A stretch of 64,000 nt of DNA from Candidatus Omnitrophota bacterium (lineage in GTDB: Bacteria > Omnitrophota > Gorgyraeia > Duberdicusellales > 4484-171), in NCBI GenBank assembly GCA_041652815.1, contig JBAZGN010000001.1:445855-509854 (forward strand), written 5' to 3'. Positions 2,846-34,617 of this stretch are shown in pieces. The translations under genes were made by a program, and so were the position numbers. The notes under the pieces were generated by a model, which did not search any database, was not told the DNA's origin, and saw only the letters and a list, made by a program, of their open reading frames with translations. Numbering within the stretch: position 1 is the stretch's first letter; each line of letters starts with the position of its first letter.

Positions 2846-3766
2846 ATGAATCATATGAAATTAAATGAGTGGATTAACAAAAGCGAAAATATTTTTACGC
2901 ATAGCGATTTACAATTTCTTTTAAGGCAATTTTTCTGCGACAAAGATATATTTCTGAAACAAAAAAGCATTTCTCTGGATGCAGGCAGGCTCGCATTTTT
3001 TTCGAAGATAAAAAAGGAATATAAAAAGGGAGTGCCGTTAGCCTATCTTTTAGGTAAAGAGGAATTCTTTGGCTTGGAATTTAATGTTAACCCGGATGTT
3101 TTAATACCGCGCCAGGACACGGAAGTTGTAACCGAGAAAGCCATAGAAGTAATCAGAAATCATAATTTAATCCCCTTACGGGGACGTCGCCCCACAGGGT
3201 TTGACAAGAAAGGATTCACGGGTACGCCTGCCTTTGGCAGTCAGGCTCGTTGGGCTCCAGCCGAGATGCTGGATTTATGCTGTGGTTCGGCAAATATAGC
3301 GATAACCATTAAGAAATTTTTTAGAGATAAGATAAAAATTTGGGCTTCGGATATAAGCACAGATGCCATAACCGTTGCTAAGAGTAATGTCAGGCGCCAC
3401 AAAGTAAAGATAAACTTACGCAAAGGAAACCTTTTCAGCGCTTTTTGCGGCAAGAAATTCGATATCATAGTTTCTAACCCGCCATATATAGGTAAGCCGG
3501 AAATAAAAGGCAGTTTAAAGTATGAACCGAGGATTGCCTTAGAAGCCGGCAATGACGGAATGTATTTTATAGAAAAAATAATAAAAAATGCGCATTCATA
3601 CTTAAAAGAAAGAGGATTTCTGGTAATTGAAGCAGGCTACAAACATAAAAAGCCCATTAACAGCATTCTTGAAAAAACAGGCAAATATGAGATTATAGAA
3701 TGGATTAAAGATTATGGGGGTAATTTTAGAGGAGTAGTTTTACAACACGCAGATGATCACGGATAG
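2846..3766 (+). CDS. prmC: Release factor glutamine N5-methyltransferase (HemK/PrmC), with a GC-rich internal insert
   Basis: NPPY motif (VSNPPYIGKPE) and SAM-binding LDLCCGS. About 32 aa (IPLRGRRPTGFDKKGFTGTPAFGSQARWAPAE) are inserted before motif I. Confidence 0.8.
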   Translation: MNHMKLNEWINKSENIFTHSDLQFLLRQFFCDKDIFLKQKSISLDAGRLAFFSKIKKEYKKGVPLAYLLGKEEFFGLEFNVNPDVLIPRQDTEVVTEKAIEVIRNHNLIPLRGRRPTGFDKKGFTGTPAFGSQARWAPAEMLDLCCGSANIAITIKKFFRDKIKIWASDISTDAITVAKSNVRRHKVKINLRKGNLFSAFCGKKFDIIVSNPPYIGKPEIKGSLKYEPRIALEAGNDGMYFIEKIIKNAHSYLKERGFLVIEAGYKHKKPINSILEKTGKYEIIEWIKDYGGNFRGVVLQHADDHG

Positions 3767-3810
3767 GAAATCGCAGATGATCACAGATAAATTCATCTGC
3801 GATCATCCGT
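3749..3810. repeat. CACAGAT/CGCAGAT inverted-repeat array (family B), copy 1
   Basis: GCAGATGATCAC x2 direct, then ATCTGCGATCATC inverted. Spans the prmC stop. Confidence 0.6.
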
Positions 3811-3874
3811 TTCCCCGCCACCTTGATATTTTTATTTAGGCGGGTCTGTGCTAATCTGTGCGGAGCGAAGCGAC

Positions 3875-5137
3875 ATGGATAAGTTCACCATACACAAATC
3901 AACTCTTTCCGGGGAAGTATCAGTAAGCGGCTCTAAGAATGCTGCGCTTCCTGTAATAGCTGCAACTATTCTTACTGACGAAGATTGTATCCTTCATAAT
4001 GTTCCTAACCTCATGGATATAAGGACAATGGCAAAAATTCTTGAGGGGCTTGGCAAGCAAATTACATACGATAACGGCACCATGGTTATAAAAGCAACCA
4101 AAAAATGCGGCTATGTTGCTCCTTACAGGTTAGTTAGAACTATGCGTGCTTCGTTTTGCTGTCTGGGGCCGCTACTTACGCGCCGAAAAAAAGCAAAGGT
4201 TTCACTTCCCGGGGGCTGTGTTATAGGCGTGCGTCCGGTTGATTTGCATATAAAAGGTTTAAAACTCCTCGGCGCAGATATTAAAATAGAAAAAGGATAT
4301 TGTATCGCCGATGGGAAAAATATGCGGGGTAATCACTTGTACCTTGGAGGACAATTTGGCTCCTCAGTCCTTGCCACAGATAACATTATGATGGCTGCAA
4401 CGCTAATTGACGGAGAAACAATTATTGAATACGCGGCTTGTGAGCCGGAAGTAGAAAGTTTAGGGCTATTTCTTAAAAAAATGGGCGCTGACATAACCGG
4501 GGAAGGCACGCCTCTAATAAGAGTAAGAGGCGTAAAGAAGCTTGGGGGGTGTGAATTTGATATCATCCCTGACAGAATAGAGGCAGGAACGTTTCTGGCC
4601 GCAAGTTTAGCTACCAATTCGCCCCTTGTGATTAAAGGAGCAAATCCGTTTCATCTTACTTCAGCTATAGAAATTGTAAAGGAAATGGGCGCAGAAGTGC
4701 AAATTGATAATGCGCGTTCAATAAAAGTAGTGCCCAAGGGTAGCCTCCGTCCGGTTAATATTACAACTCTTCCTTATCCGGGTTTTCCTACGGATTTACA
4801 GGCGCAATTTATGATATGCCTTTGTTTTGCAAAAGGAATTTCTTTGATTACGGAAAAGATTTATCCGGACAGGTTTATGCATGTAGCCGAGCTTAACCGT
4901 ATGGGCGCCGGCATTCAAAGAAATGGGCCTTACGCAATAATAGAAGGAAAAGAAAAGCTTTTCGGCGCTGAGGTAATGGCTTCTGACCTAAGGGCTTCAG
5001 CTGCTTTGATTATTGCGGGCTTGAGCGCGGAAGATAAGACAGAAGTTTTTAGGGTATACCACATTGACCGTGGATACGAGCATATCGAAGAGAAACTACG
5101 CAAATTGGGAGCAAAGATAAAGAGAGAGAGGCAATAA
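3875..5137 (+). CDS. murA: UDP-N-acetylglucosamine 1-carboxyvinyltransferase
   Basis: About 420 aa of EPSP-synthase-fold MurA (KNAALPVIAA, LPGGCVIGVRPVDLHIKGL). Start set at ATG 3875 (MDKFTIHKS). Confidence 0.9.
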   Translation: MDKFTIHKSTLSGEVSVSGSKNAALPVIAATILTDEDCILHNVPNLMDIRTMAKILEGLGKQITYDNGTMVIKATKKCGYVAPYRLVRTMRASFCCLGPLLTRRKKAKVSLPGGCVIGVRPVDLHIKGLKLLGADIKIEKGYCIADGKNMRGNHLYLGGQFGSSVLATDNIMMAATLIDGETIIEYAACEPEVESLGLFLKKMGADITGEGTPLIRVRGVKKLGGCEFDIIPDRIEAGTFLAASLATNSPLVIKGANPFHLTSAIEIVKEMGAEVQIDNARSIKVVPKGSLRPVNITTLPYPGFPTDLQAQFMICLCFAKGISLITEKIYPDRFMHVAELNRMGAGIQRNGPYAIIEGKEKLFGAEVMASDLRASAALIIAGLSAEDKTEVFRVYHIDRGYEHIEEKLRKLGAKIKRERQ

Positions 5138-6876: not shown

Positions 6877-7656
6877 ATGCATAACGTACTTTCATTAATA
6901 GTAGAGGCAAAGAAAAAGAAAGTTGAGATTTTGAAAAAGAACCGGGATGAACTCCTTTCTTTTGTAAAAAAAGCCCCTAAAGTCATTTCTTTTAATGAGG
7001 CAATAAAAAGAGAAGGCAAAATTTCTTTTATTGCAGAAATAAAACAAGCTTCACCTTCGGCTGGGGTACTCAGGAAAGATTTTTCGCACGTAGAGATTGC
7101 AAAAATTTACCGCGACGCCAAGGTAAATGCCCTGTCCGTAGTTACTGAAAGCGAATTTTTTTTAGGAAAAATTAATTACATAGAAGATATCAAAAAAGAA
7201 ATTGACCTTCCGGTTCTACGCAAAGACTTTATTATAGACGAAATACAAATTCTTGAATCCCGCGCAGTAGGAGCTGATGCAATTTTGCTGATAATGCGTA
7301 TACTCGACGAAGAAAAGCTCGTACGGCTTTACAGTTTCAGCAAAGAATTAGGTATGGATGTTATAGTTGAGATACACACCGAAAAAGAATTGAAAAAGGT
7401 GCTGGCAACAAACGTAAATATAATCGGGATAAATAACAGGAATTTAAATACGCTAAAAGTTGATTTGAAAACAACACAAAAATTAATCCCTTTTATACCG
7501 CAGACAATTACAAAGATGAGCGAAAGCGGCATAAATACGCTTAAGGATGTTTTGTTGATGAAAGGCTTAGGTGTTGATGCAATTTTAGTCGGCGAGAGCC
7601 TGATGAAGGCAGATGATATCGCAGAAAAAATAAAAGAATTACATATAGACGCGTAA
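6877..7656 (+). CDS. trpC: Indole-3-glycerol phosphate synthase
   Basis: 259-aa TIM-barrel with IAEIKQASPS and LIGINNRNL motifs. Confidence 0.85.
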   Translation: MHNVLSLIVEAKKKKVEILKKNRDELLSFVKKAPKVISFNEAIKREGKISFIAEIKQASPSAGVLRKDFSHVEIAKIYRDAKVNALSVVTESEFFLGKINYIEDIKKEIDLPVLRKDFIIDEIQILESRAVGADAILLIMRILDEEKLVRLYSFSKELGMDVIVEIHTEKELKKVLATNVNIIGINNRNLNTLKVDLKTTQKLIPFIPQTITKMSESGINTLKDVLLMKGLGVDAILVGESLMKADDIAEKIKELHIDA

Positions 7657-7657
7657 T

Positions 7658-7746
7658 GCACAGATAAGCGCAGATAAAAATCACAGATGACCACAGATAA
7701 AAGCATCTGTGACTATCCGCTTCCAAATCTGTGATTATCTGTGTGA
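7658..7746. repeat. CACAGAT inverted-repeat array (family B), copy 2
   Basis: Four direct (G/C)CACAGAT(A/G)A units followed by three inverted ATCTGTGA units, between trpC and trpF. Also contains ATCCGCTTCC. Confidence 0.6.
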
Positions 7747-7766
7747 GCCGAACGAAGTGAGGCGGC

Positions 7767-8399
7767 ATGATTAAAGTAAAAATTTGTGGAATAACTAACC
7801 TGGAAGATGCATTAGCTTGTTCAAACGAAGGCGCTGACGCTTTAGGCTTTATCTTTTCCAAGAAAAGCCCCCGCTATATAAACGAAAAAGAAGCAGCGAA
7901 AGTAATTTCCGGGCTTGACCCATACATAACAAAGGTAGGGGTATTCCTGGATGAAGAAAAAGAAAAAGTATTTGAAATAGCAAATATGCTTTCCTTGGAT
8001 ATTTTGCAGTTTCATGGGAAGGAAATCCCTTCTTATTGTTCAGCTTTTGCGCCAAAATTTAAAATTGTAAAAGTATTTTTCCCTGAAGATGCCCCGTTTA
8101 AAGTAAAGGTTCCGCGTTACAAAATAGATGCGGCAATGTTTGATATAAAATATGAACAAAAATCCAAAGGCAAAAATACTTTAGATAAAAATATACTTAA
8201 AGAGATATCAGCGCTGATTAAAGAAGGAAGTAGAGTAATAATATCGGGCGGCCTAAATGTAAAAAATATTTCGCAGATTACCCGATTAAAACCATACGCA
8301 GTTGATGTTTCAAGCGGATTGGAGAAATTTGTCGGTAAAAAAGATATTGAGCTTGTAAGGGAATTCATAAAAAAGGTGAAAAATGCTTCTTCCAAATAA
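7767..8399 (+). CDS. trpF: Phosphoribosylanthranilate isomerase
   Basis: 210 aa beginning [10 protein letters not shown], as in the PRAI family, positioned between trpC and trpB. Confidence 0.8.
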
Positions 8400-9564
8400 A
8401 AAAGGCTATTTCGGCGCATTCGGCGGTAAATTTATGCCGGAGACACTATTTTCCTGTCTTAAGGAGCTTGATTCCTTTTATGATAAGGCAAAAAAAGACA
8501 CTGCCTTTAAAAAAGAATTCCAATCTTACCTTAAAAACTATGCGGGGCGCCCTACTATGCTTTATTTTGCTAAAAATTTAAGCAAGCACCTTGGTATGAA
8601 GATTTATCTAAAAAGAGAAGACCTCCTTCATACCGGAGCGCATAAAATAAACAATTCTCTCGGCCAGGCTCTTCTTGCCCATACAATGGGTAAGAAGAGG
8701 GTAATTGCCGAAACCGGTGCCGGCCAGCACGGGGTGTCAGCAGCAACAGTCGCGCGGCTTTTTAATTTAAAATGTGATGTTTATATGGGAGAGGAAGATA
8801 TCGCGCGGCAGCGAATGAATGTTTTTAGAATGAAAATTCTGGGTGCCAATGTAATTGCCGTAAAAAGCGGTTCAAAAACGCTGAAAGACGCCTGCAATGA
8901 AGCAATGAGAGACTGGGTTACCAATGTAAGAGATACTTATTATCTTATCGGTTCAACTTTTGGCCCGCATCCGTATCCGATGATGGTAAGGGATTTCCAA
9001 TCGGTTATAGGTAAGGAAGCAAGAGCGCAAATTATTAAAGAACAAAAAAGGCTTCCGCATTTTCTTTTAGCTTGTGTTGGCGGCGGCAGTAATTCTATGG
9101 GGTTGTTTGCTCCATTTTTTAAAGATGCGAAGGTGAAATTTATCGGCGTTGAAGCAGGAGGCTTAAACAAAAGCTTAAACTCAGCTTCAATAAGTTTCGG
9201 CGATGTCGGTGTGTTGCATGGAGCAAAAACTTATATTCTGCAGGATAGGTTCGGACAAGTAAAAGGAACACATTCCATCGCCGCAGGCCTGGATTACCCG
9301 GGTGTCGGGCCGGAACACTCTTTTTATAACGACTCAAACCGCGCCAAGTATGTTGCCGTAAAGGACAAAGAAGCCTTGGAAGGTTTTAAGATGCTAAGTG
9401 AGCTTGAGGGAATAATTCCTGCGCTTGAAAGCGCGCATGCAATTTATTACTTAAAAAAATTGGCAAAGCGCGCCAAAGACGCCTTAGTTGTAGTTTGTTT
9501 ATCCGGCAGAGGAGATAAGGATTTGGAAATAATACAAGAGCATTTAGAAGCGGATCCTCGCTGA
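8383..9564 (+). CDS. trpB: Tryptophan synthase beta chain
   Basis: 393 aa with the PLP-binding lysine region HTGAHKINN and GGGSN motifs. Confidence 0.95.
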
Positions 9565-9583
9565 TAGTAGCGGATTTATACAA

Positions 9584-9838
9584 ATGAATAAGAAACAATT
9601 AATAGTAAGCCTTATAATGATCGGCTTAATTTTGGTTGCAATATTCGTCTTTTTAAATTATGAAATTCTTTATGGTAGAGGATTGGATGGTAAAAAAGAT
9701 TTATATTTTTCGCCATTGTCAAATCATCCCAGAATCTATGCTGTTAGATTGCAAATTTATAATTTCGCTAAATATGTTTTGCCTTTTATAGTTATGAGTG
9801 GTCTTTTGGTATACTTTTTGAAGGATAAAAGAAGGTAA
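9584..9838 (+). CDS. Small hypothetical membrane protein (2 predicted TM) inserted between trpB and trpA
   Basis: 84-aa ORF with two hydrophobic helices. No homology recognised. Confidence 0.35.
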   Translation: MNKKQLIVSLIMIGLILVAIFVFLNYEILYGRGLDGKKDLYFSPLSNHPRIYAVRLQIYNFAKYVLPFIVMSGLLVYFLKDKRR

Positions 9839-10643: not shown

Positions 10644-10743
10644 CGATAGAAACACAATAGAAATACGGTAGATATACAATTGTATTTCTATTGTATCTCG
10701 CGAGCGTAGCGAGCGTATTTCAACTGTATTTCTATTACGGTAT
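10644..10743. repeat. Palindromic element with tandem GCGAGCGTA repeat downstream of trpA
   Basis: CGATAGAAACACAATAGAAATAC...GTATTTCTATTGTATCTCG hairpin, CGAGCGTAG x2, and a third GTATTTCTATT copy. Confidence 0.6.
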
Positions 10744-12098: not shown

Positions 12099-12527
12099 AT
12101 TCCTAAAAAAACTTCACCAAACAAATTAAAAGCTTTAAAAATCGCGCAGTTTACCCTTGATAAAAAAGCGAAACATACTGTTATTCTTGATGTGAGTTCG
12201 CTTTCCGGCCTTTGCGATTATTTTGTTATCTGTAGCGCAGAAACCGGCACTCAGGCCGATGCTATCTTGAATTGGGTGGCTGCAAACGCCAAAGAGAATA
12301 ATCTTAAGATACATCACTACGAAAAAGACGAATTGTCTGACTGGGTTCTTGTTGATTTTTCTGATGTAATACTGCATGTATTCGTAAATGAGGCGAGAAA
12401 ATTTTATAACCTTGAGCATCTTTGGGCTGACGCTAAAAGAGTAAGAATCCCCAGGAAAGTAGAAGCGGATACCCGCGGATCAAAACACGGATTGCCGCCA
12501 GCGATTCGCTTGCGTAAATCCGCGTAG
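12099..12527 (+). CDS. rsfS: Ribosome silencing factor RsfS (Iojap), C-terminus extended by a repeat element
   Basis: Core VILDVSSLSGLCDYFVICSAETGTQADAI matches RsfS/DUF143. The true start is uncertain: the frame is open from 12084 with AGGAGG at 12086, and the ORF track starts at GTG 12192. The last ~23 aa (EADTRGSKHG...) are encoded by the palindromic repeat. Confidence 0.7.
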   Translation: MPKKTSPNKLKALKIAQFTLDKKAKHTVILDVSSLSGLCDYFVICSAETGTQADAILNWVAANAKENNLKIHHYEKDELSDWVLVDFSDVILHVFVNEARKFYNLEHLWADAKRVRIPRKVEADTRGSKHGLPPAIRLRKSA

Positions 12528-12552
12528 ATATCCGCGGTAATCCGCATCTATT
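12459..12552. repeat. ~95-bp GCGGAT-rich imperfect palindromic element (family A), copy 1
   Basis: GTAGAAGCGGATACCCGCGGAT...ATCCGCGGTAATCCGCATCTA. Terminal inverted repeats shared with copies at 14643, 22682 and 25563. Confidence 0.8.
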
Positions 12553-12567
12553 ATAAGGAGAAATCAT

Positions 12568-13426: not shown

Positions 13427-13504
13427 CGGGGCGTGGCTCAGCCCGGCTAGAGCGCTTGGTTCGGGACCAAGATGTCGGTGGTTCAAATCCACTCGCCCCG
13501 ACCA
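13427..13504 (+). tRNA. tRNA-Pro (anticodon CGG)
   Basis: Manual cloverleaf fold: acceptor CGGGGCG/CGCCCCG, D-arm GCTC/GAGC, anticodon stem CTTGG/CCAAG with loop TTCGGGA, T-arm GGTGG-TTCAAAT-CCACT, discriminator A, encoded CCA. Confidence 0.85.
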
Positions 13505-13635
13505 TTTCTTACTAACAAATGTCGGCAACGCCATAGGTTCAACCCCGAACCAGAACAAAGTTCGGCTCGGGGTTGCCCAGCACCGAACTTCGTTCTGGTG
13601 CTGGGCAAATCCCTCTCTCCCGACTCTGTTTTTAT

Positions 13636-13742: not shown

Positions 13743-13748
13743 ATTGTG

Positions 13749-14711
13749 ATGAAAGTTTTTTTGGGTATTGATTGGGGGGGTACCTATATAAAGGCCGGGA
13801 TAGTTAATTCGAGCGGCAAAATCCTAAAAAAAATAGTATATTCCTCGAGCCAGCTTAAAAGGCGGCAAGCGTTTACAGGCGAGATAAAAAGATTAAAAGA
13901 TACATTTAAAAAATATAATATCAAAGCCGTAGGCATAGGCGCTCCAGGTATAATTAATGTAGAGCGAGGCTCGATATACTACCTGCCAAATGTCCCGGGT
14001 TGGGAAAATTCCCCTCTTAAAACAATGCTCGAGAAAGAGCTTAAAATACCCGTGTTTATTGATAATGATGCAAATATTTTTGCCCTTGCTGAAGTACGTA
14101 AAGGCGCAGGGCGCGGAATGAGCCGCGCGATATTCTTAACCCTTGGCACAGGCCTTGGCGGCGCGGTTATTTTTAATGGGCAAATTATAGAAGGGAAAAC
14201 CAGCGCTTCTGAGCTCGGGCATGTGGTTATTGATGTAAACGGAAAAAAATGCGGCTGCGGAGGCTATGGGTGTATCGAAACTTTTACCGGAAGTAACCAT
14301 TTGCTCGAAAGGTACCGCCAGCTTAAAAAAATAAAAACTGCGCCAAAAGAAGTTAAAGAAATTTTTGATAAAGCAAAAACGGGAAAGAAAGAAGCATTAA
14401 TCGTTTGGCAGGAGTTTTCCAAATATTTAGGAAAATTTCTTGCAGGAATGATTAATATATTCAATCCGCAGGTCATAATTCTTGGAGGAGGAGTTTCAGG
14501 GGCATTTAACCTGTTTCGGCCTTTGCTTTGGCAGGCTATAAAAGCGCAAGCAATGTGGCCGCAGCTTACCGGCTTAAAATTAGTTAAAGCAAAGCTAAAA
14601 GATGCAGGAATTATAGGCGCAGCCTTGTTGGCTAAGGATAAACTAGAAGCGGATACCCGCGCAACTAACGCGGATAAACGCAAGCCAAGTCCCGTGCGGA
14701 TATCCGCGTAG
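13749..14711 (+). CDS. ROK-family glucokinase, C-terminus extended by a repeat element
   Basis: Has the DWGGT N-terminal motif and the ROK zinc motif GHVVID...CGCGGYGCIE. The tail LEADTRATNADKRKPSPVRISA is read from the repeat. Confidence 0.8.
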   Translation: MKVFLGIDWGGTYIKAGIVNSSGKILKKIVYSSSQLKRRQAFTGEIKRLKDTFKKYNIKAVGIGAPGIINVERGSIYYLPNVPGWENSPLKTMLEKELKIPVFIDNDANIFALAEVRKGAGRGMSRAIFLTLGTGLGGAVIFNGQIIEGKTSASELGHVVIDVNGKKCGCGGYGCIETFTGSNHLLERYRQLKKIKTAPKEVKEIFDKAKTGKKEALIVWQEFSKYLGKFLAGMINIFNPQVIILGGGVSGAFNLFRPLLWQAIKAQAMWPQLTGLKLVKAKLKDAGIIGAALLAKDKLEADTRATNADKRKPSPVRISA

Positions 14712-14736
14712 ATATCTGCGGCAATCCGCTTCTATA
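14643..14736. repeat. Family A palindromic element, copy 2
   Basis: CTAGAAGCGGATACCCGCG...GCGGCAATCCGCTTCTATA. Supplies the C-terminal 22 codons of the glucokinase ORF. Confidence 0.8.
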
Positions 14737-17613: not shown

Positions 17614-18916
17614 GAAAAACTATAAGATTTGTGTAGTAGGCGCAGGCCATGTAGGGCTTGTAAGCGCGGCTTGTTTTTCTGAGCTTGGTTACCGGGTAAT
17701 TTGTGTTGACAACGATAAAAAGAAAATAAAATCCCTTAAGGAGAAAACCCTGCCTTTTTATGAACCTGGCCTGGATTCAATTGTGATAAAAAACATAAAT
17801 AGGGGAAACCTTGTTTTTACATCAGCGCTTCCACAAAGCGTAAAGAAATCAGACGTAATATTTATAGTTGTAGGAACGCCGCCGCTGCCTGACGGTTCGG
17901 CTGATTTAACCTCGATAGAAAATGTTGCCAGGGTAATTGCAAAGAATTTGAATTCCTACAAGCTTATTGTTGAAAAGTCAACCGTTCCGGTACAAACCGG
18001 AAGTAAGGTCAAGGAAACAATATGTCGATATAGAAAAAATAATACAGAATTCGATATAGCGTCTAACCCGGAATTTTTAAGAGAAGGAAAAGCTATATAT
18101 GATTTTTTTCATCCGGATAGAATAGTGATAGGCGTAGAGTACGAGCGTGCCGAAAAGATTTTAAAGAGCCTGTATTCTTCTATTAAGGCACCAATAGTTG
18201 TAACCGACATAAATACTTCAGAGCTGATAAAACATGCTTCAAATTCATTCCTGGCGACAAAAATTTCTTTTATAAATGCTGTAGCGCATATCTGTGATTT
18301 GGCAGGAGCAAATGTAAAAAAAGTTGCCTTAGGCATGGGATTGGATAAGCGCATCGGAAAAGATTTTTTGGATGCGGGTTTGGGCTACGGTGGTTTTTGT
18401 TTCCCAAAAGACCTGGAAGCCTTTATCTATATTTCTAAAAAGTTAGGCTATATTTTTGGCCTAATCCAGGAAGTTAAAAGCATAAATGACCAACAGAAAA
18501 AATATTTTGTCGAAAAAATAAAAGAACATTTATGGGTGTTAAAAAACAAAAAAATAGCAATATTGGGGCTTTCTTTTAAGCCTGATACCGACGATATGCG
18601 TTTTGCCCCTTCGATAGACATAGTTAATCTTCTTGTAAACGAAGGAGCGCACCTTAAGCTATATGACCCTCAGGCAAACAACGCAGCAAAAAAAATTTTA
18701 AGAAATAAGAAAATAACTTTTGCCAAAAATGCTTATGACGCGGTAAGAAATTGCGATTGTATCTGTGTTCTTACCGAATGGGAAGAGTTTAAGAAATTAG
18801 ATTTCTCGAAAATAAAAAAAATAATGCATTATCCTTTGCTTGCTGACGGAAGAAATATGTTCGATAAGAAACAAATTGAAGTATTGGGTTTTAAGTATAT
18901 AGGGATAGGCACTTGA
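17594..18916 (+). CDS. ugd: UDP-glucose 6-dehydrogenase
   Basis: KICVVGAGHVGLV Rossmann fold and catalytic GFCFPKD. The start is uncertain: TTG 17570 or GTG 17594, overlapping the lptD stop. Confidence 0.85.
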   Translation: MQRRLIKKNYKICVVGAGHVGLVSAACFSELGYRVICVDNDKKKIKSLKEKTLPFYEPGLDSIVIKNINRGNLVFTSALPQSVKKSDVIFIVVGTPPLPDGSADLTSIENVARVIAKNLNSYKLIVEKSTVPVQTGSKVKETICRYRKNNTEFDIASNPEFLREGKAIYDFFHPDRIVIGVEYERAEKILKSLYSSIKAPIVVTDINTSELIKHASNSFLATKISFINAVAHICDLAGANVKKVALGMGLDKRIGKDFLDAGLGYGGFCFPKDLEAFIYISKKLGYIFGLIQEVKSINDQQKKYFVEKIKEHLWVLKNKKIAILGLSFKPDTDDMRFAPSIDIVNLLVNEGAHLKLYDPQANNAAKKILRNKKITFAKNAYDAVRNCDCICVLTEWEEFKKLDFSKIKKIMHYPLLADGRNMFDKKQIEVLGFKYIGIGT

Positions 18917-18997
18917 TAGGCGCTAATTCCCACGAATTTGGAACGAATTTACACGAATAAATTCAGGATTTCATTTGTGGCAATTCGTTTGTAATTT

Positions 18998-19020
18998 CCC
19001 GCCTTTGGCGGGATCCCGCC
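18998..19020 (+). terminator. Overlapping GC hairpins downstream of ugd (CCCGCCTTTGGCGGG / GGCGGGATCCCGCC)
   Basis: 14-nt perfect palindrome GGCGGGATCCCGCC overlapping a 5-bp-stem hairpin, followed by an A-rich tract on the top strand. Confidence 0.4.
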
Positions 19021-19066
19021 AAATAAAATATTAAGGTGCGGGACGTGGCCATTCGTGCATCAATAT

Positions 19067-21722: not shown

Positions 21723-22685
21723 ATGAAGTTACTTGTAACAGGCGGTTGTGGGTTTATAGGCTCTAATTTCATACACTATATTCTTGAAACATATCCGGAC
21801 TACAAAGTTACAAATCTGGATTGTTTAAATTATGCCGGTAATTTAGAAAATCTTTCGGATATCGCTAAGAATAAAAATTATAAGTTTGTAAAAGGTAACA
21901 TCAGAGACTTTAAGGTGATGAGCAAATTAATAAAAGAAAGCGATTATGTGGTCAATTTTGCCGCGCAAACCCATGTCGACAGGTCTATAAAAAAGGCCAG
22001 CGAGTTTATTGAAACAAATATAAACGGAGTATTTACTTTGCTTGAAGCCTGCCGTAATTCCAAAATAAAACTTTTCATACAGATAAGTACCGATGAAGTA
22101 TATGGCAGCACCTTGGAAGGCGCATTTATAGAAACAGATTTGCTTTGCCCCTCAAGCCCTTATTCGGCATCAAAGGCAGCAGCGGATTGTTTGTGCAATG
22201 CTTATGCGGCTACTTATAAAATCCCAGTGATAGTAACAAGGTGTACAAATAATTTTGGGCCTTATCAATACCCGGAAAAAGTAATACCACTTTTCGTAAC
22301 CAATCTTTTGCAAGGTAAGAAGGTGCCGCTTTACGGAGACGGGCTTAATGTCAGAGACTGGATTTATGTTTATGACCACGTGCGGGCGATTGATTTTCTG
22401 ATGCATAAAGGAAAGACAGGAGAAATATATAATATATCTTCGAATAACGAAGTCTCAAACATCGAATTGACAAAACTAATACTTAAAAAATTTGGCCTCG
22501 ACGAAAATTACATAAAATATGTGCAGGACCGCCCTGCTCATGACCGCCGCTATTCGCTGGATTCTTCAAGGTTACGTTTACTTGGCTGGAAGCCGGTTTA
22601 TGATTTCAGTACATCTCTGGACGCAACTATTGATTGGTATAAAGAAAACACTAAGTGGTGGACGAAAATAAAACAGCAAAAGTAG
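21723..22685 (+). CDS. rmlB: dTDP-glucose 4,6-dehydratase
   Basis: TGGCGFIGSNF, STDEVYG, YSASKAAAD and CTNNFGPYQYPEKVIP are canonical RmlB motifs. Confidence 0.9.
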   Translation: MKLLVTGGCGFIGSNFIHYILETYPDYKVTNLDCLNYAGNLENLSDIAKNKNYKFVKGNIRDFKVMSKLIKESDYVVNFAAQTHVDRSIKKASEFIETNINGVFTLLEACRNSKIKLFIQISTDEVYGSTLEGAFIETDLLCPSSPYSASKAAADCLCNAYAATYKIPVIVTRCTNNFGPYQYPEKVIPLFVTNLLQGKKVPLYGDGLNVRDWIYVYDHVRAIDFLMHKGKTGEIYNISSNNEVSNIELTKLILKKFGLDENYIKYVQDRPAHDRRYSLDSSRLRLLGWKPVYDFSTSLDATIDWYKENTKWWTKIKQQK

Positions 22686-22776
22686 AAGCGGATTACCGCG
22701 GATACTTACGCGGATTTCCGCACACGAACTCGCTTGCGTTTATCCGCGTTTAGATCCGCGGATATCCGCTTCTATA
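22682..22776. repeat. Family A palindromic element, copy 3
   Basis: GTAGAAGCGGATTACCGCGGATAC...GATCCGCGGATATCCGCTTCTATA between rmlB and rmlD. The rmlB stop is the TAG at the element start. Confidence 0.8.
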
Positions 22777-24638: not shown

Positions 24639-25598
24639 ATGAATATACTAATAACTGGCGGAGCAGGTTTCATCGGTTCGCATTTATGTAAAGCTTTCCT
24701 TCAAAGAGGAGATTATATAATTTGCGTTGATAACTTTATTACCGGCTCAAAAGATAACATTAAAGAGTTTCTAAATAGCCAAAATTTCCGGCTTATTGAG
24801 CATGATATTTCAACACCTTTATACATAAACGACAGCATAGATTGGGTGTTGCATTTTGCATCACTGGCTTCGCCCAAAGATTATATAACTTACCCGATAA
24901 AAACTTTAAAATCAGGGTTACTTGGAACACATAATTGTTTAGGTATCGCTAAAGCAAAGAATGCAAAATTTTTCTTTGCTTCAACCAGTGAAATTTATGG
25001 GGACCCGTTGATACATCCGCAAGTAGAAGAATATTGGGGCAATGTAAACTCTATAGGCGTGCGTAGCTGCTATGATGAGAGTAAAAGAGGCGGAGAGGCC
25101 CTTGTTTATGCCTATAACCGCCAGCATTCAATAGATGTAAGAATAGTCAGAATATTTAATACTTATGGACCCAATATGCAGATAGAAGACGGAAGAGTTG
25201 TTTCCAATTTTATTGTTCAGGCCTTAAGGGGAGAAGATTTGACTATTTACGGCCGTGGCAACCAAACCAGGTCTTTTTGTTATGTTGATGATCTTGTGGC
25301 TGGTCTGTTAAGAATAATGGAGGTTAATTATAAATTACCGTTAAATCTTGGGAATCCTTCTGAGTTTATGGTAAGTGAGTTGGCAAAGTTAGTTCTAAAA
25401 CTGACAAAATCAAAATCAAAAATAAAATTCTTGCCTTTGCCGGAAGATGACCCCAAGAAAAGAAAACCGGATATCACAAAAGCAAAGAAAATTCTTTCAT
25501 GGCAACCGCAAATACGATTGGAGGAAGGCCTTAAAAAGACTATAGAATATTTTAGGAGAAAACTAGAGGCGGATACCCGCGGATCCATACGCGGATAA
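24639..25598 (+). CDS. uxs: UDP-glucuronate decarboxylase (UDP-xylose synthase), C-terminus extended by a repeat element
   Basis: RIFNTYGPNM, DGRVVSNFIVQALRGEDLTIYGRGNQTRSF and CYVDDLV match the UXS family closely. The tail LEADTRGSIRG is read from the repeat. Confidence 0.8.
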   Translation: MNILITGGAGFIGSHLCKAFLQRGDYIICVDNFITGSKDNIKEFLNSQNFRLIEHDISTPLYINDSIDWVLHFASLASPKDYITYPIKTLKSGLLGTHNCLGIAKAKNAKFFFASTSEIYGDPLIHPQVEEYWGNVNSIGVRSCYDESKRGGEALVYAYNRQHSIDVRIVRIFNTYGPNMQIEDGRVVSNFIVQALRGEDLTIYGRGNQTRSFCYVDDLVAGLLRIMEVNYKLPLNLGNPSEFMVSELAKLVLKLTKSKSKIKFLPLPEDDPKKRKPDITKAKKILSWQPQIRLEEGLKKTIEYFRRKLEADTRGSIRG

Positions 25599-25655
25599 AC
25601 ACAAACGAATTGTTTGCGTAAATCCGCGTTACTATCCGCGGTAATCCGCTTCTAC
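25563..25655. repeat. Family A palindromic element, copy 4
   Basis: CTAGAGGCGGATACCCGCGGATCC...ATCCGCGGTAATCCGCTTCTACA between uxs and the gmd-like gene. Supplies the uxs tail. Confidence 0.8.
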
Positions 25656-32349: not shown

Positions 32350-33449
32350 ATATTCCTTATGTAAACCTTGCCGGGCAAAATAGAGTAGTAAAAAAAGAAA
32401 TCTTGCAGGCAATAGGAAAGGTTTTAGAGAGCGGGCAATTTATTCTTGGCAAAGAGGTTGAAGCCTTTGAACGTTCTTTTGCTAATCTTTGCGGTACAGA
32501 ATATGCTTTAGGCGTAGGCACGGGAACGGATGCTCTTGTTCTCGCACTTCGCGTATTAAATATAGGGCCCGGCGATAGTGTAATTACGGTTGCGAATTCT
32601 TTTATTTCTACCGCAAGCTCTATTGTTTTAGTCGGTGCGAAACCGGTATTCGTTGATGTGGGTGAAGATTATAATATAAACCCTCGGTTAATTGAAAAAG
32701 CAATAAATTCCCGCACAAAGGCAATACTACCGGTTCATCTAACCGGCCGGCCGGCAGATATGAAATCTATATTAGAAATAGCAAAAAAACATAAATTAAC
32801 AGTGATTGAAGATTGCGCCCAGGCGGTTGGTGCAGAATATAGAGAAAAATGTGTTGGTTCATTCGGCACAATAGGTTGTTTCAGCCTCCACCCTTTAAAA
32901 AATCTAAATGCCTGCGGTGATGGAGGGGCGTTGACAACCAACGACAGGAATCTCTATAGAAAATTGCAGATTTTACGTAACAACGGTTTTAGCACTCGCG
33001 ACAATTGCGCCGCTTGGAGCGATAATTCAAGACTGGATACCATACAGGCGGCATTATTACTCGTTAAGCTTAATTACCTGAAAAAATGGACTGACAGGCG
33101 CCGGGAGAATGCCGAATTTTACCAAAAACATTTATCCTGCCTTACACAAGTCAAAGTTCCTGTTGAAAGGCCTTATGAAAAAAGCGTCTATCATACTTTT
33201 GTTATCCAGGCGCAGGACCGTGATAGGTTAAGCAACTTCTTGGGCCGTAAAGGCATTGGTACAAAAATACATTATCCTATCCCCATACATTTACAGCCAG
33301 CGGCAAAAAGCTTAAAACAAAAGAGTGGTTCTTTGCTTATGACTGAAAAGCAGGCAAAAATGATTTTGAGTTTGCCGATTTATCCCGAACTTACTACTAA
33401 GCAATTAAGTTATATAGTAAATTGTATCTACGATTTTTATAATCAATAG
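32346..33449 (+). CDS. DegT/DnrJ/EryC1/StrS family sugar aminotransferase
   Basis: PLP-dependent fold (FSLHPLKNLNACGDGGAL, LRNNG), 367 aa. Confidence 0.8.
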   Translation: MNIPYVNLAGQNRVVKKEILQAIGKVLESGQFILGKEVEAFERSFANLCGTEYALGVGTGTDALVLALRVLNIGPGDSVITVANSFISTASSIVLVGAKPVFVDVGEDYNINPRLIEKAINSRTKAILPVHLTGRPADMKSILEIAKKHKLTVIEDCAQAVGAEYREKCVGSFGTIGCFSLHPLKNLNACGDGGALTTNDRNLYRKLQILRNNGFSTRDNCAAWSDNSRLDTIQAALLLVKLNYLKKWTDRRRENAEFYQKHLSCLTQVKVPVERPYEKSVYHTFVIQAQDRDRLSNFLGRKGIGTKIHYPIPIHLQPAAKSLKQKSGSLLMTEKQAKMILSLPIYPELTTKQLSYIVNCIYDFYNQ

Positions 33450-33514: not shown

Positions 33515-34617
33515 TGAAAATTTCCTATTCTTATTTGGCCAGGCAATTTAAAAATATTGACCCCTATCTTAAAGATATAAAAAAATTAGTAAAAAGCGGC
33601 GATTTTACTTTAGGTAAGGATGTAGCAAAGTTTGAAGAAAATTTTGCCAAGCTTTGTAAGATACCTTTTGCTTTGGGGGTCAGCTCCGGAACAGATGCCC
33701 TTATCCTTTCTTTGGAAATTTTAGGCATAGGCCATAACGACGAAGTTATTACCGCGCCCAACACCTTTATTGCCACTGTTGGTGCAATTGCAATGACCGG
33801 AGCACGACCGGTATTTGTAGATAATAACGAGGAATATACTATTGATGTGAACAAGATTGAGAAAGCAATTACGCCTAAGACTAAGGCGATACTTCCGGTT
33901 CATCTTTCCGGATGCCCTGCGGACATGCCTAAAATTATGGAAATTGCCAAAAAATATAATTTATTGGTAGTGGAAGATGCGGCCCAGTCCATACTTGCTA
34001 CAATTGACGGAAAACATGTTGGTTCGTGGGGCCAGACTGCTTGTTTTAGCATGCACCCTTTAAAAAATTTAAATGTCTGGGGAGATGCGGGGATAATTGT
34101 TACTCGCTCAAAGGAATTATGCGAAAAATTAAAATTATTTCGTAACCATGGCTTAGCCACCCGCGATGAAATCGAAATATTCGGCCATAATAGCCGGTTG
34201 GATTCTCTACAGGCCCTGGTTGCGAACCGGCTGATTAAAGATACCGTTTCCATTACCGATAAGCGTATTGAAAATGCTATGCGTTTTGACGAAGCTTTTA
34301 AAAAACTTAAGGGTTATATTACAATTCCACCCCGCAGGCCCAATGTAAAACAGGTGTATCATACTTATGTAATCCAGGCAAAAAATCGAGATGGTTTATA
34401 CGCGCATATGCTTAAAAAGGGGGTAGAGGTAAAAATTCATTACCCTATACCTTTACATTTACAAAAGGCCGCGGCTTATTTAGGGTATAAGGCCGGAGAT
34501 TTTCCGGTTTGCGAAGAACATTGCCGTACAATCATTACTTTACCGGTCCATCAACATCTGACTTCGAAAGAGATCGATTACATGATTAAATGCGTACGTG
34601 AGTTTTATTTGGGATAG
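33515..34617 (+). CDS. DegT/DnrJ/EryC1/StrS family sugar aminotransferase
   Basis: Start set at ATG 33515, 6 nt after AGGAGG. FSMHPLKNLNVWGDAGII and LFRNHG motifs. Paralog of 32346..33449. Confidence 0.8.

Follow-up and report, generated by a model that had tools for sequence, protein, structure and literature searches.

What are the GCGGAT-rich palindromes that stand at gene 3' ends in a stretch of Candidatus Omnitrophota DNA, and how do the proteins encoded before them come to share their last residues? The stretch comprises 64,000 nucleotides (nt) of contig JBAZGN010000001.1 (positions 445,855 to 509,854, forward strand) and is referred to here as the window. An initial annotation described four such elements as terminators resembling repetitive extragenic palindromic (REP) sequences or miniature inverted-repeat transposable elements (MITEs), which would also remodel protein C-termini. 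The four sequences are probably copies of a short, non-coding, palindromic interspersed repeat, selfish, TA-associated and similar to MITEs and to REPINs, the hairpin-forming doublets of REP sequences. Repeats of this kind are known; new here are the arms built of tandem units, the occurrence of the unit across phyla and the association with an uncharacterised nuclease family.

Four hairpin elements and the predicted protein tails that they encode

The arm motif GAAGCGGATACCCGCGGAT, with up to three mismatches allowed, has nine matches in the window against 0.02 expected by shuffling, eight of which are the paired arms of four elements and the ninth a single arm at 9547. Counting of the arm motif, alignment and folding thus confirm the four palindromic copies with terminal inverted repeats of the initial annotation. 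Its sites (12459, 14643, 22682 and 25563) are right, but the true starts lie one base further in, because the base before the terminal TAG varies. Three copies share one orientation, termed A, and were scored with a covariance model built from 23 copies: copy 1 (12460-12550; 97.6 bits) at the rsfS-hypA junction, copy 2 (14644-14734; 87.3 bits), from which the analysis set out, between the genes for an ROK kinase and a transaldolase, and copy 4 (25564-25654; 98.5 bits) between uxs-like and gmd-like genes. Copy 3 (22683-22774; 110.5 bits on the minus strand), at the rmlB-rmlD junction, lies in orientation B, inverted with respect to the other three as judged by its asymmetric internal loops. Together with their immediate flanks, the four copies have a mean column identity of 80% over 122 alignment columns. 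Each is 91-92 bp long, carries no open reading frame (ORF) of its own, ends in TA-GAAGCGGAT...ATCCGCTTC-TA and consists of two arms of 43-45 nt that are 76-77% complementary. The long RNA hairpin that had been predicted is borne out, since in folding calculations either strand of each copy forms a single long hairpin with interruptions, at -46 to -57 kcal/mol (z-scores from -6.6 to -10.6), and is more stable than all 200 shuffled sequences. The same elements occupy the same sites in an independent ENA contig (99.5% identity over 20 kb) and in a Logan contig, and an assembly artefact is therefore ruled out.

With regard to the genes upstream, Pfam confirms their identities as RsfS, ROK and NAD-dependent sugar dehydratases/epimerases. 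The rsfS gene (12192-12527), whose Pfam domain stops at residue 78 of 111, runs 22 codons into copy 1 and has the predicted end ...RKVEADTRGSKHGLPPAIRLRKSA, with the element-derived tail KVEADTRGSKHGLPPAIRLRKSA read from the plus strand at 12456-12527. Likewise, the ROK gene (13746-14711) runs 22 codons into copy 2, with the predicted end ...DKLEADTRATNADKRKPSPVRISA and the tail (L)EADTRATNADKRKPSPVRISA (14640-14711, plus strand), and the uxs-like gene (24639-25598) runs 11 codons into copy 4, with the predicted end ...RKLEADTRGSIRG and the tail (L)EADTRGSIRG (25560-25598, plus strand). The stop codon of rmlB is the first TAG of copy 3. The ...(L)EADTR... tails common to rsfS, ROK and uxs, and the rmlB stop at the TAG of the element, are exactly as first described. 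Moreover, a solo left arm (TAGAAGCGGAT-CCTCGCTGAT-AGTAGCGGAT; 9544-9580, plus strand) at the 3' end of trpB supplies the predicted TrpB end ...HLEADPR.

The origin of these tails becomes apparent from two related loci, L118 and L119, which were recovered by a protein-guided metagenome scan with RmlD (79-80% identical) and are syntenic with the window, with DNA 74-80% identical over about 20 kb. Neither contains a unit cluster or a match to the covariance model, with which the window copies score 87-110 bits, and adjoining genes meet or overlap at the three comparable sites: AATGA is shared by ROK and tal and TAATG by uxs and gmd, and rmlB likewise extends into rmlD. Presence/absence polymorphism at orthologous sites is thus found at all three comparable junctions, and for each of the three empty sites, one relative or both have a TA at the corresponding position. 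The element-free orthologues (80-89% identity) end earlier and differently, with ...AKEKLEERK for ROK, ...KKIKKY for RmlB and ...KLGIKE or ...KLG for Uxs, and the tails, which the initial annotation had named as possibly conserved in repeat-free orthologues, were looked for there and are not present. Removal of the element together with one TA from the window sequence gives ...KDKL (stop codon TAA) for ROK, ...PRKVL (TAA) for RsfS and ...RRKLQQNKHI for Uxs, the last with an ATGA overlap onto gmd; with copy 3 removed, RmlB would run on to overlap rmlD, as it does in the relatives. Since orthologues devoid of the repeat lack the tails and short ends return on its removal, the tails come from the element. 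The copies are therefore shown to be insertions relative to close relatives, and the pattern at the junctions is consistent with insertion at TA accompanied by duplication.

Remodelling of C-termini, which had been put forward as a property of the elements, holds for three of the four window copies and for the solo arm but does not extend to the whole family: in a related metagenome-assembled genome (MAG) none of the upstream ORFs reads through the element and 2 of 20 stop at its TAG. Tail donation is thus an occasional outcome that happens to be frequent in the window. A database search with the concatenated tail peptides returned no candidate with three shared words, although at least the proteins of the window themselves were expected to match. 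In this genome, three or four housekeeping proteins carry predicted C-terminal tails that are repeat-derived and not native, and homology-based C-termini and gene ends in Omnitrophota MAGs need care wherever the element family occurs.

Anatomy and distribution of the repeat unit

An arm consists of a TA-GAA end and, behind it, three GCGGAT-type units at intervals of about 10-13 nt; a second, inverted arm lies on the other side of an apex that varies between copies. Over 23 distinct copies the consensus reads TAGAAGCGGAT-nn-CCGCGGAT-CnAAA-CGCGGAT-AAA-CGC-(variable apex)-GCG-TAA-ATCCGCG-TAnAT-ATCCGCGG-TA-ATCCGCTTCTA. The stems formed by the units are invariant or nearly so across these copies; the internal loops and the apex vary freely. 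TA is present at both ends in nearly all of the 24 hits, the exceptions being one CA start (L042) and one ATATA end (L110). The TAG is constant and is preceded by A in 14 of 24 copies and by G, C or T in the others; it pairs with CTA in the hairpin, and the conserved unpaired GTAG/CGTC tag that defines REP sequences, beside an imperfect palindrome of 20-40 bp, is not found. At Rfam gathering thresholds, the window yielded only a tRNA-Pro, and 18 loci of other phyla gave no match. The antisense RNA folds into the more stable structure in 17 of the 23 Omnitrophota-type copies (window and L005-L110), the sense RNA in five.

An exact-pattern scan of GTDB representative genomes returned at least 115 stretches, so that copy numbers and the taxon list are lower bounds. 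Among the matches listed, the Omnitrophota MAG JBAZGZ01 contributes at least 15 contigs and JAQVOZ01 at least one more. The two Omnitrophota MAGs hold at least 20 further hits in 16 loci, of which 19 are distinct because two of them are one element on overlapping contigs; they have the same TA ends and unrelated flanks, and their loci have nothing but the element in common with the window. The copy count beyond the window that the initial annotation had proposed thus gives at least 19 further distinct copies; with those of the window, 15 of 23 are A-sense and 8 B-sense relative to transcription. Nor are the elements restricted to the window or the product of a single assembly, two possibilities raised at the outset, as other Omnitrophota copies exist and independent assemblies agree. 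Genes could be called on both sides of 22 copies, and in 20 of these cases they run in the same direction, the copy typically standing 2-8 nt past the upstream stop and 12-20 nt ahead of the next start; the neighbours are ordinary housekeeping genes according to Pfam searches of 104 neighbouring ORFs. The window itself is extremely compact, with all of its 56 ORFs (greedy longest-ORF pass) on the plus strand and spacers of a few bases.

Hairpins in which a loop separates three CGCGGAT units from three ATCCGCG units, with a period of 9-10 nt, are also found between genes in at least about ten phyla. Among the matches listed, they occur in Verrucomicrobiota, Planctomycetota, Chloroflexota, Acidobacteriota and Gemmatimonadota, as well as in Xanthomonadales and other Pseudomonadota, 'Deltaproteobacteria', Bacteroidota and Ignavibacteriales, often several to a genome. 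Their context among the listed matches is tandem in 32 cases, convergent in 20 and divergent in 12; another 17 fall within ORFs, are mostly devoid of the multi-unit structure and seem to have arisen by chance. The window copies share the architecture of this proposed group, with at least three C[G/A]CGGAT units per arm at a period of about 10 nt in inverted arms. Furthermore, copies from Chloroflexota end in ATAGACCGCGGAT...ATCCGCGGTCTAT and those from Acidobacteriota in TTAGCCGCGGAT...ATCCGCGGCTAA, the TAG/CTA ends being common to both and to the window copies. A literature search with the string CGCGGAT retrieved only unrelated primer and CRISPR papers, and a published REP survey contains no GCGGAT-type family in its text or supplements (PMC3733652). 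A G+C-rich IMG/VR contig with phage baseplate and NlpC/P60 genes (L199, identical to L046) offers a separate observation: between 3600 and 14220, CGCGGAT hairpins lie in nearly every spacer (at about 3613, 5348, 8910, 10290, 11169 and 14155).

In several of these genomes the hairpins stand beside a gene of one particular family. On a Deltaproteobacteria contig (L051), an ORF of 145 residues lies directly between two hairpins, in the order hairpin-gene-hairpin, and matches PF13366 (PDDEXK_3, E = 3e-35) and TIGR04256, 'GxxExxY protein'. Arrays of the CGCGGAT type were found within about 50 nt of the gene at all 12 GxxExxY sites examined, six of which come from pattern-derived loci (L051, L076, L102/L200, L113, L054 and, with a truncated gene, L011) and six from protein look-ups; 10 of the 12 pass one uniform regular expression, the upstream side of L113 and the second L201 gene being looser matches made by eye. 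The same expression found one array and no GxxExxY gene in a 717-kb control of unrelated RmlD loci. The arrays near these genes include the variants CACGGAT, CACAGAT, CGCAGAT, CGCGGAG and ACGGAG. Bracketed GxxExxY genes within one and the same genome were seen in Deltaproteobacteria, Ignavibacteriales, Verrucomicrobiota and Phycisphaerae, and all those examined are co-oriented inserts in housekeeping operons, the niche that the window hairpins also occupy. In L214 a pair of inverted arms encloses the gene, which thus sits in the 'loop', and in a leu operon of Phycisphaerae/Sedimentisphaerales the order is leuD, three units, GxxExxY, three units, ORFX, three inverted units and leuB. The left-arm units of L214 are all CACAGAT and the right-arm units ATCCGTG, which creates G.T wobbles on one strand only. 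A search for more GxxExxY loci in viral contigs confirmed none.

At least 8000 database candidates were scored for the GxxExxY family, a very large one, and its name occurs in three papers of the literature searched. A census of PD-(D/E)XK nucleases lists its function as 'Unknown' and notes 'multiple transfers' (PMC3424549). No sequence match was found in the PDB; an AlphaFold model, with a predicted local distance difference test (pLDDT) score of 94, adopts a minimal PD-(D/E)XK nuclease fold, in which D71 and K83 are invariant and E81 is kept in at least 90% of sequences.

Phycisphaerae-type leu operons (L203, L206, L201 and L213) carry several small inserted genes. L203 contains two 23S_rRNA_IVP (PF05635) genes (3876-4247 and 7669-8043), each with its own A+T-rich inverted repeats. 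These operons also hold a GxxExxY gene and an ORF of 237-281 residues, with a weak HepT-like match in L201 and no Pfam match in L203 and L206, and further ORFs without a Pfam match are inserted in the same operons.

A probable mobile repeat and the alternatives to it

The copies lie at TA dinucleotides, in the last codons of a gene or in the short spacer between co-transcribed genes, and their insertion pushed the native stop codon, or the stop/start overlap, downstream of the element. Depending on its frame, the upstream ORF ends at once, at the terminal TAG, or further inside the element, at a stop (GCG-TAG or GGA-TAA) that lies in the internal loop or follows the third unit. Since the ORFs now end within the element or at its TAG, the ...(L/V)EADTR... 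tails are by-products of insertion. Spread would require a trans-acting enzyme that recognises the units; this enzyme, the mode of transposition and the TA duplication are all features that we infer. In so compact a genome, a selfish element would persist by occupying the only places that tolerate it, either the few bases that separate a stop codon from the ribosome-binding site of the next gene or the last codons of a gene. Genes whose counterparts overlap in the relatives are thereby uncoupled, and any effect on mRNA processing or stability would be secondary. As a MITE should be, the element is small, non-coding and bounded by terminal inverted repeats, and the REP/MITE-like nature of the interspersed palindromes, as first annotated, is supported by the inverted repeats, the TA ends, the dispersed copies and the empty sites.

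As for the enzyme, we infer that the window family is the cargo-less form of a cross-phylum group of CGCGGAT-unit arms, which elsewhere bracket small GxxExxY nuclease genes, and that this nuclease is a candidate partner. Tentatively, the group could amount to a hitherto undescribed class of mobile, pan-bacterial intercistronic cassettes that are bounded by arrays of the 7-nt unit (CGCGGAT and co-varying variants) and whose signature gene encodes the nuclease, although we regard this extension as doubtful. Under such a scheme, the arrays, in duplex, hairpin or cruciform form, would be recognised by the nuclease, which would drive insertion or homing, a role comparable to that of the REP-associated tyrosine transposase (RAYT) towards REPINs; alternatively, its gene would be a homing parasite aimed at the hairpin loop. 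The direction of the link could differ: the arms could be mobilised by the nuclease, hairpins already in place could be the targets into which its gene homes, or the arrays could serve as signals for expression of the gene. A causal link would give the GxxExxY family a role and define a new repeat-enzyme system, testable in vitro.

Several observations weigh against a mobile repeat or against its proposed enzyme. A hidden Markov model built from 120 homologues and run against the six-frame translation detected no GxxExxY homologue or fragment in about 150 kb of Omnitrophota sequence including the window (partial genomes), and the putative link between the window family and the nuclease is therefore carried by the unit sequence, the architecture and the niche that they have in common. 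No autonomous partner with the same ends was found in the window or in the examined Omnitrophota loci, which are partial genomes; a scan for arm pairs 0.5-3 kb apart, as an autonomous element would have, gave noisy output. The 25 Pfam families listed for the 104 neighbouring ORFs include no transposase, of the Y1 type or otherwise. A duplicated TA of 2 bp would look the same as one that forms part of the inverted repeat, and the rmlB junction works equally well without one. Loss from the relatives, as opposed to gain here, is excluded by parsimony only, the gene overlaps of the relatives carrying no scar, and copies at different sites always differ in sequence, which gives no evidence of recent movement. 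Additionally, a covariation test found no compensatory double change among the 23 copies, and the A/T polymorphism at column 5 is never compensated at column 88. Since the stems are invariant in sequence, covariation cannot argue for conservation of the structure; stem invariance without compensation points to a constraint on the unit sequence itself and not merely on pairing, and the invariant units could reflect a host function instead of recognition by a transposase.

Such a host function might be exerted at the level of RNA. The elements would then be host-selected intercistronic structures that act as an RNase III or exonuclease barrier, or as a processing site, and adjust how stable, or how well translated, the cistrons on either side are relative to each other, as REPs of E. 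coli and Correia elements can. The very stable hairpins, their conserved stems and their precise position within operons, after the stop and before the next ribosome-binding site, would suit this explanation, and secondary effects of the kind are known in repeat families (PMC2649163). It is nonetheless unlikely, given that the elements are missing in syntenic relatives, whose genes are translationally coupled instead, that they occur in both orientations, that mismatches such as that of columns 5 and 88 go uncompensated and that the neighbouring genes are functionally unrelated. No sign of selection for the hairpin at the mRNA level was found, as the sense strand is not the better folder (five copies against 17 for the antisense). 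The initial annotation's proposal of Rho-independent terminators did not hold up and appears highly improbable: G+C-rich hairpins do stand just past gene 3' ends, but a T-run follows none of the four copies (flanks TTATAAGG, TAAATAAGG, TAAAAGAAG and CAACAAAA), a terminator scan calls none, and each copy, in one orientation or the other, lies inside an operon, 12-20 nt ahead of a co-oriented gene of the same pathway, as in rmlB-rmlD and uxs-gmd.

The two remaining alternatives concern the protein that would recognise the DNA. In one of them, the elements are REPINs mobilised by a RAYT, an IS200-like tyrosine transposase, and not by a TA-targeting or PD-(D/E)XK enzyme. Each arm opens with NTAG followed by a small self-complementary GCGG-N4-CCGC, which resembles GTAG-tagged REPs such as GTAGGAGCGGGTTTACCCGCGAA of P. 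putida, and two inverted arms make a long hairpin in the fashion of a REPIN. GTAG REPs have moreover been reported from bacteria of the Planctomycetes-Verrucomicrobia-Chlamydiae (PVC) group and from Chloroflexi (PMC3733652). Against this stand the variable base before TAG (A in 14 of 24), the lack of a GCGGAT-type family in that same survey (PMC3733652) and the gene flanked by hairpins or arms in three genomes, which encodes a PD-(D/E)XK protein and not a Y1 transposase; no RAYT was found in any locus examined, RAYT and IS630-type genes not having been searched genome-wide. Mobilisation by a RAYT thus seems rather unlikely. In the other alternative, a regulator or nucleoid protein would bind the elements as arrays on double-stranded DNA, at three direct and three inverted 7-bp sites about one helical turn apart, and no hairpin would form in vivo. 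The unit spacing of 9-13 nt would fit, as would a unit sequence that is conserved beyond pairing and common across phyla, and the joint switch of both arms from one unit variant to another would be automatic for inverted protein sites. We consider it very unlikely, since the elements are insertions strewn among unrelated housekeeping operons and are absent from close relatives; the idea is nevertheless compatible with a mobile repeat if the binding protein is the mobilising enzyme.

Other features of the window and likeness to known systems

Three diverged unit-hairpins accompany the four copies in the window. The clearest (7656-7745; 23 bits, E = 0.006) lies in the trpC-trpF spacer and has four CACAGAT/CGCAGAT units per arm (CACAGAT/ATCTGTG). 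The others are weak: one (3750-3815; 16 bits, E = 0.27) overlaps the 3' end of the ORF 2846-3766 and mixes CACGGAT, CGCAGAT and CACAGAT units, and one (18935-18996; 15.8 bits), in the spacer 18916-19055, has ACGAAT/ATTCGT units. Directly after the solo arm, between trpB and trpA, an ORF of 84 residues (9584-9838) with two predicted transmembrane segments and no Pfam match on record could be the cargo of a decayed cassette or a lineage-specific gene. Two further intergenic hairpins (1637-1732 and 10646-10736) consist of three or four tandem units, a loop and inverted units, with AGATGCT/AGCATC and ATAGAAA(C/T)AC/GTATTTCTAT, respectively, and the genome seems to host several unit-hairpin families with unrelated units. 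Just downstream of the tRNA-Pro gene (13427-13504) lies a G+C-rich inverted repeat of 30+30 nt with an unrelated sequence (13543-13605). An 82-nt direct repeat (32846-32927 and 34011-34092; 76% identity, 1165 nt apart) is probably a conserved motif of two adjacent paralogous genes.

Among known systems, the Correia elements of Neisseria (Correia repeat enclosed elements, CREE) are similar in being non-coding, about 100-150 bp long and bounded by terminal inverted repeats, in having TA ends and a TA target, in their presence or absence from strain to strain, and in lying near or inside gene ends, forming hairpins and having no known transposase (PMC2649163). The Correia end TATAG[CT]GGATTAAC also has GCGGATTA in common with TAGAAGCGGATTAC here (PMC2649163), a likeness of 8 nt that was noticed post hoc and may be due to chance. 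Correia elements differ in that they have one motif per end, where three tandem units make up each arm here, and in their conserved core with an IHF site and their restriction to Neisseria. The right end of copy 1 and its flank (12525-12554) contain a sigma-70-like match (TAGATA-18-TATTAT) that recalls the promoters made by Correia ends; promoter-like matches in this region are no commoner than in shuffled sequence.

The REP/REPIN-RAYT systems of Enterobacteria and Pseudomonas also comprise short G+C-rich palindromes, whose inverted doublets form long hairpins, located downstream of genes or between ORFs that run in the same direction or converge, in tens to hundreds of copies. Their single-copy enzyme gene is flanked by repeats, as is the L051 gene between its two hairpins. 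Conversely, the elements described here have no fixed GTAG tag and repeat one 7-nt unit in tandem in each arm, the gene found between such repeats has the PD-(D/E)XK (GxxExxY) fold and not the HUH/Y1 transposase fold, and the unit is common to several phyla, whereas REP sequences are lineage-specific. The palindromic elements of Rickettsia (RPEs; Ogata et al. 2000) reportedly add amino acids to housekeeping proteins without destroying them. RPEs lie in frame inside genes; here the extreme 3' end is affected, where the last 1-10 residues are replaced by 11-22 encoded by the element. Lastly, the intervening sequence (IVS) elements of Coxiella and Leptospira 23S rRNA (S23p, PF05635) consist of a small selfish ORF within stem-forming inverted repeats (PMC4990558), and the PF05635 and GxxExxY genes of L203 occupy equivalent intercistronic slots of the leu operon, each with its own inverted arms. 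The window copies differ from IVS elements in carrying no ORF and in residing in mRNA spacers instead of rRNA.

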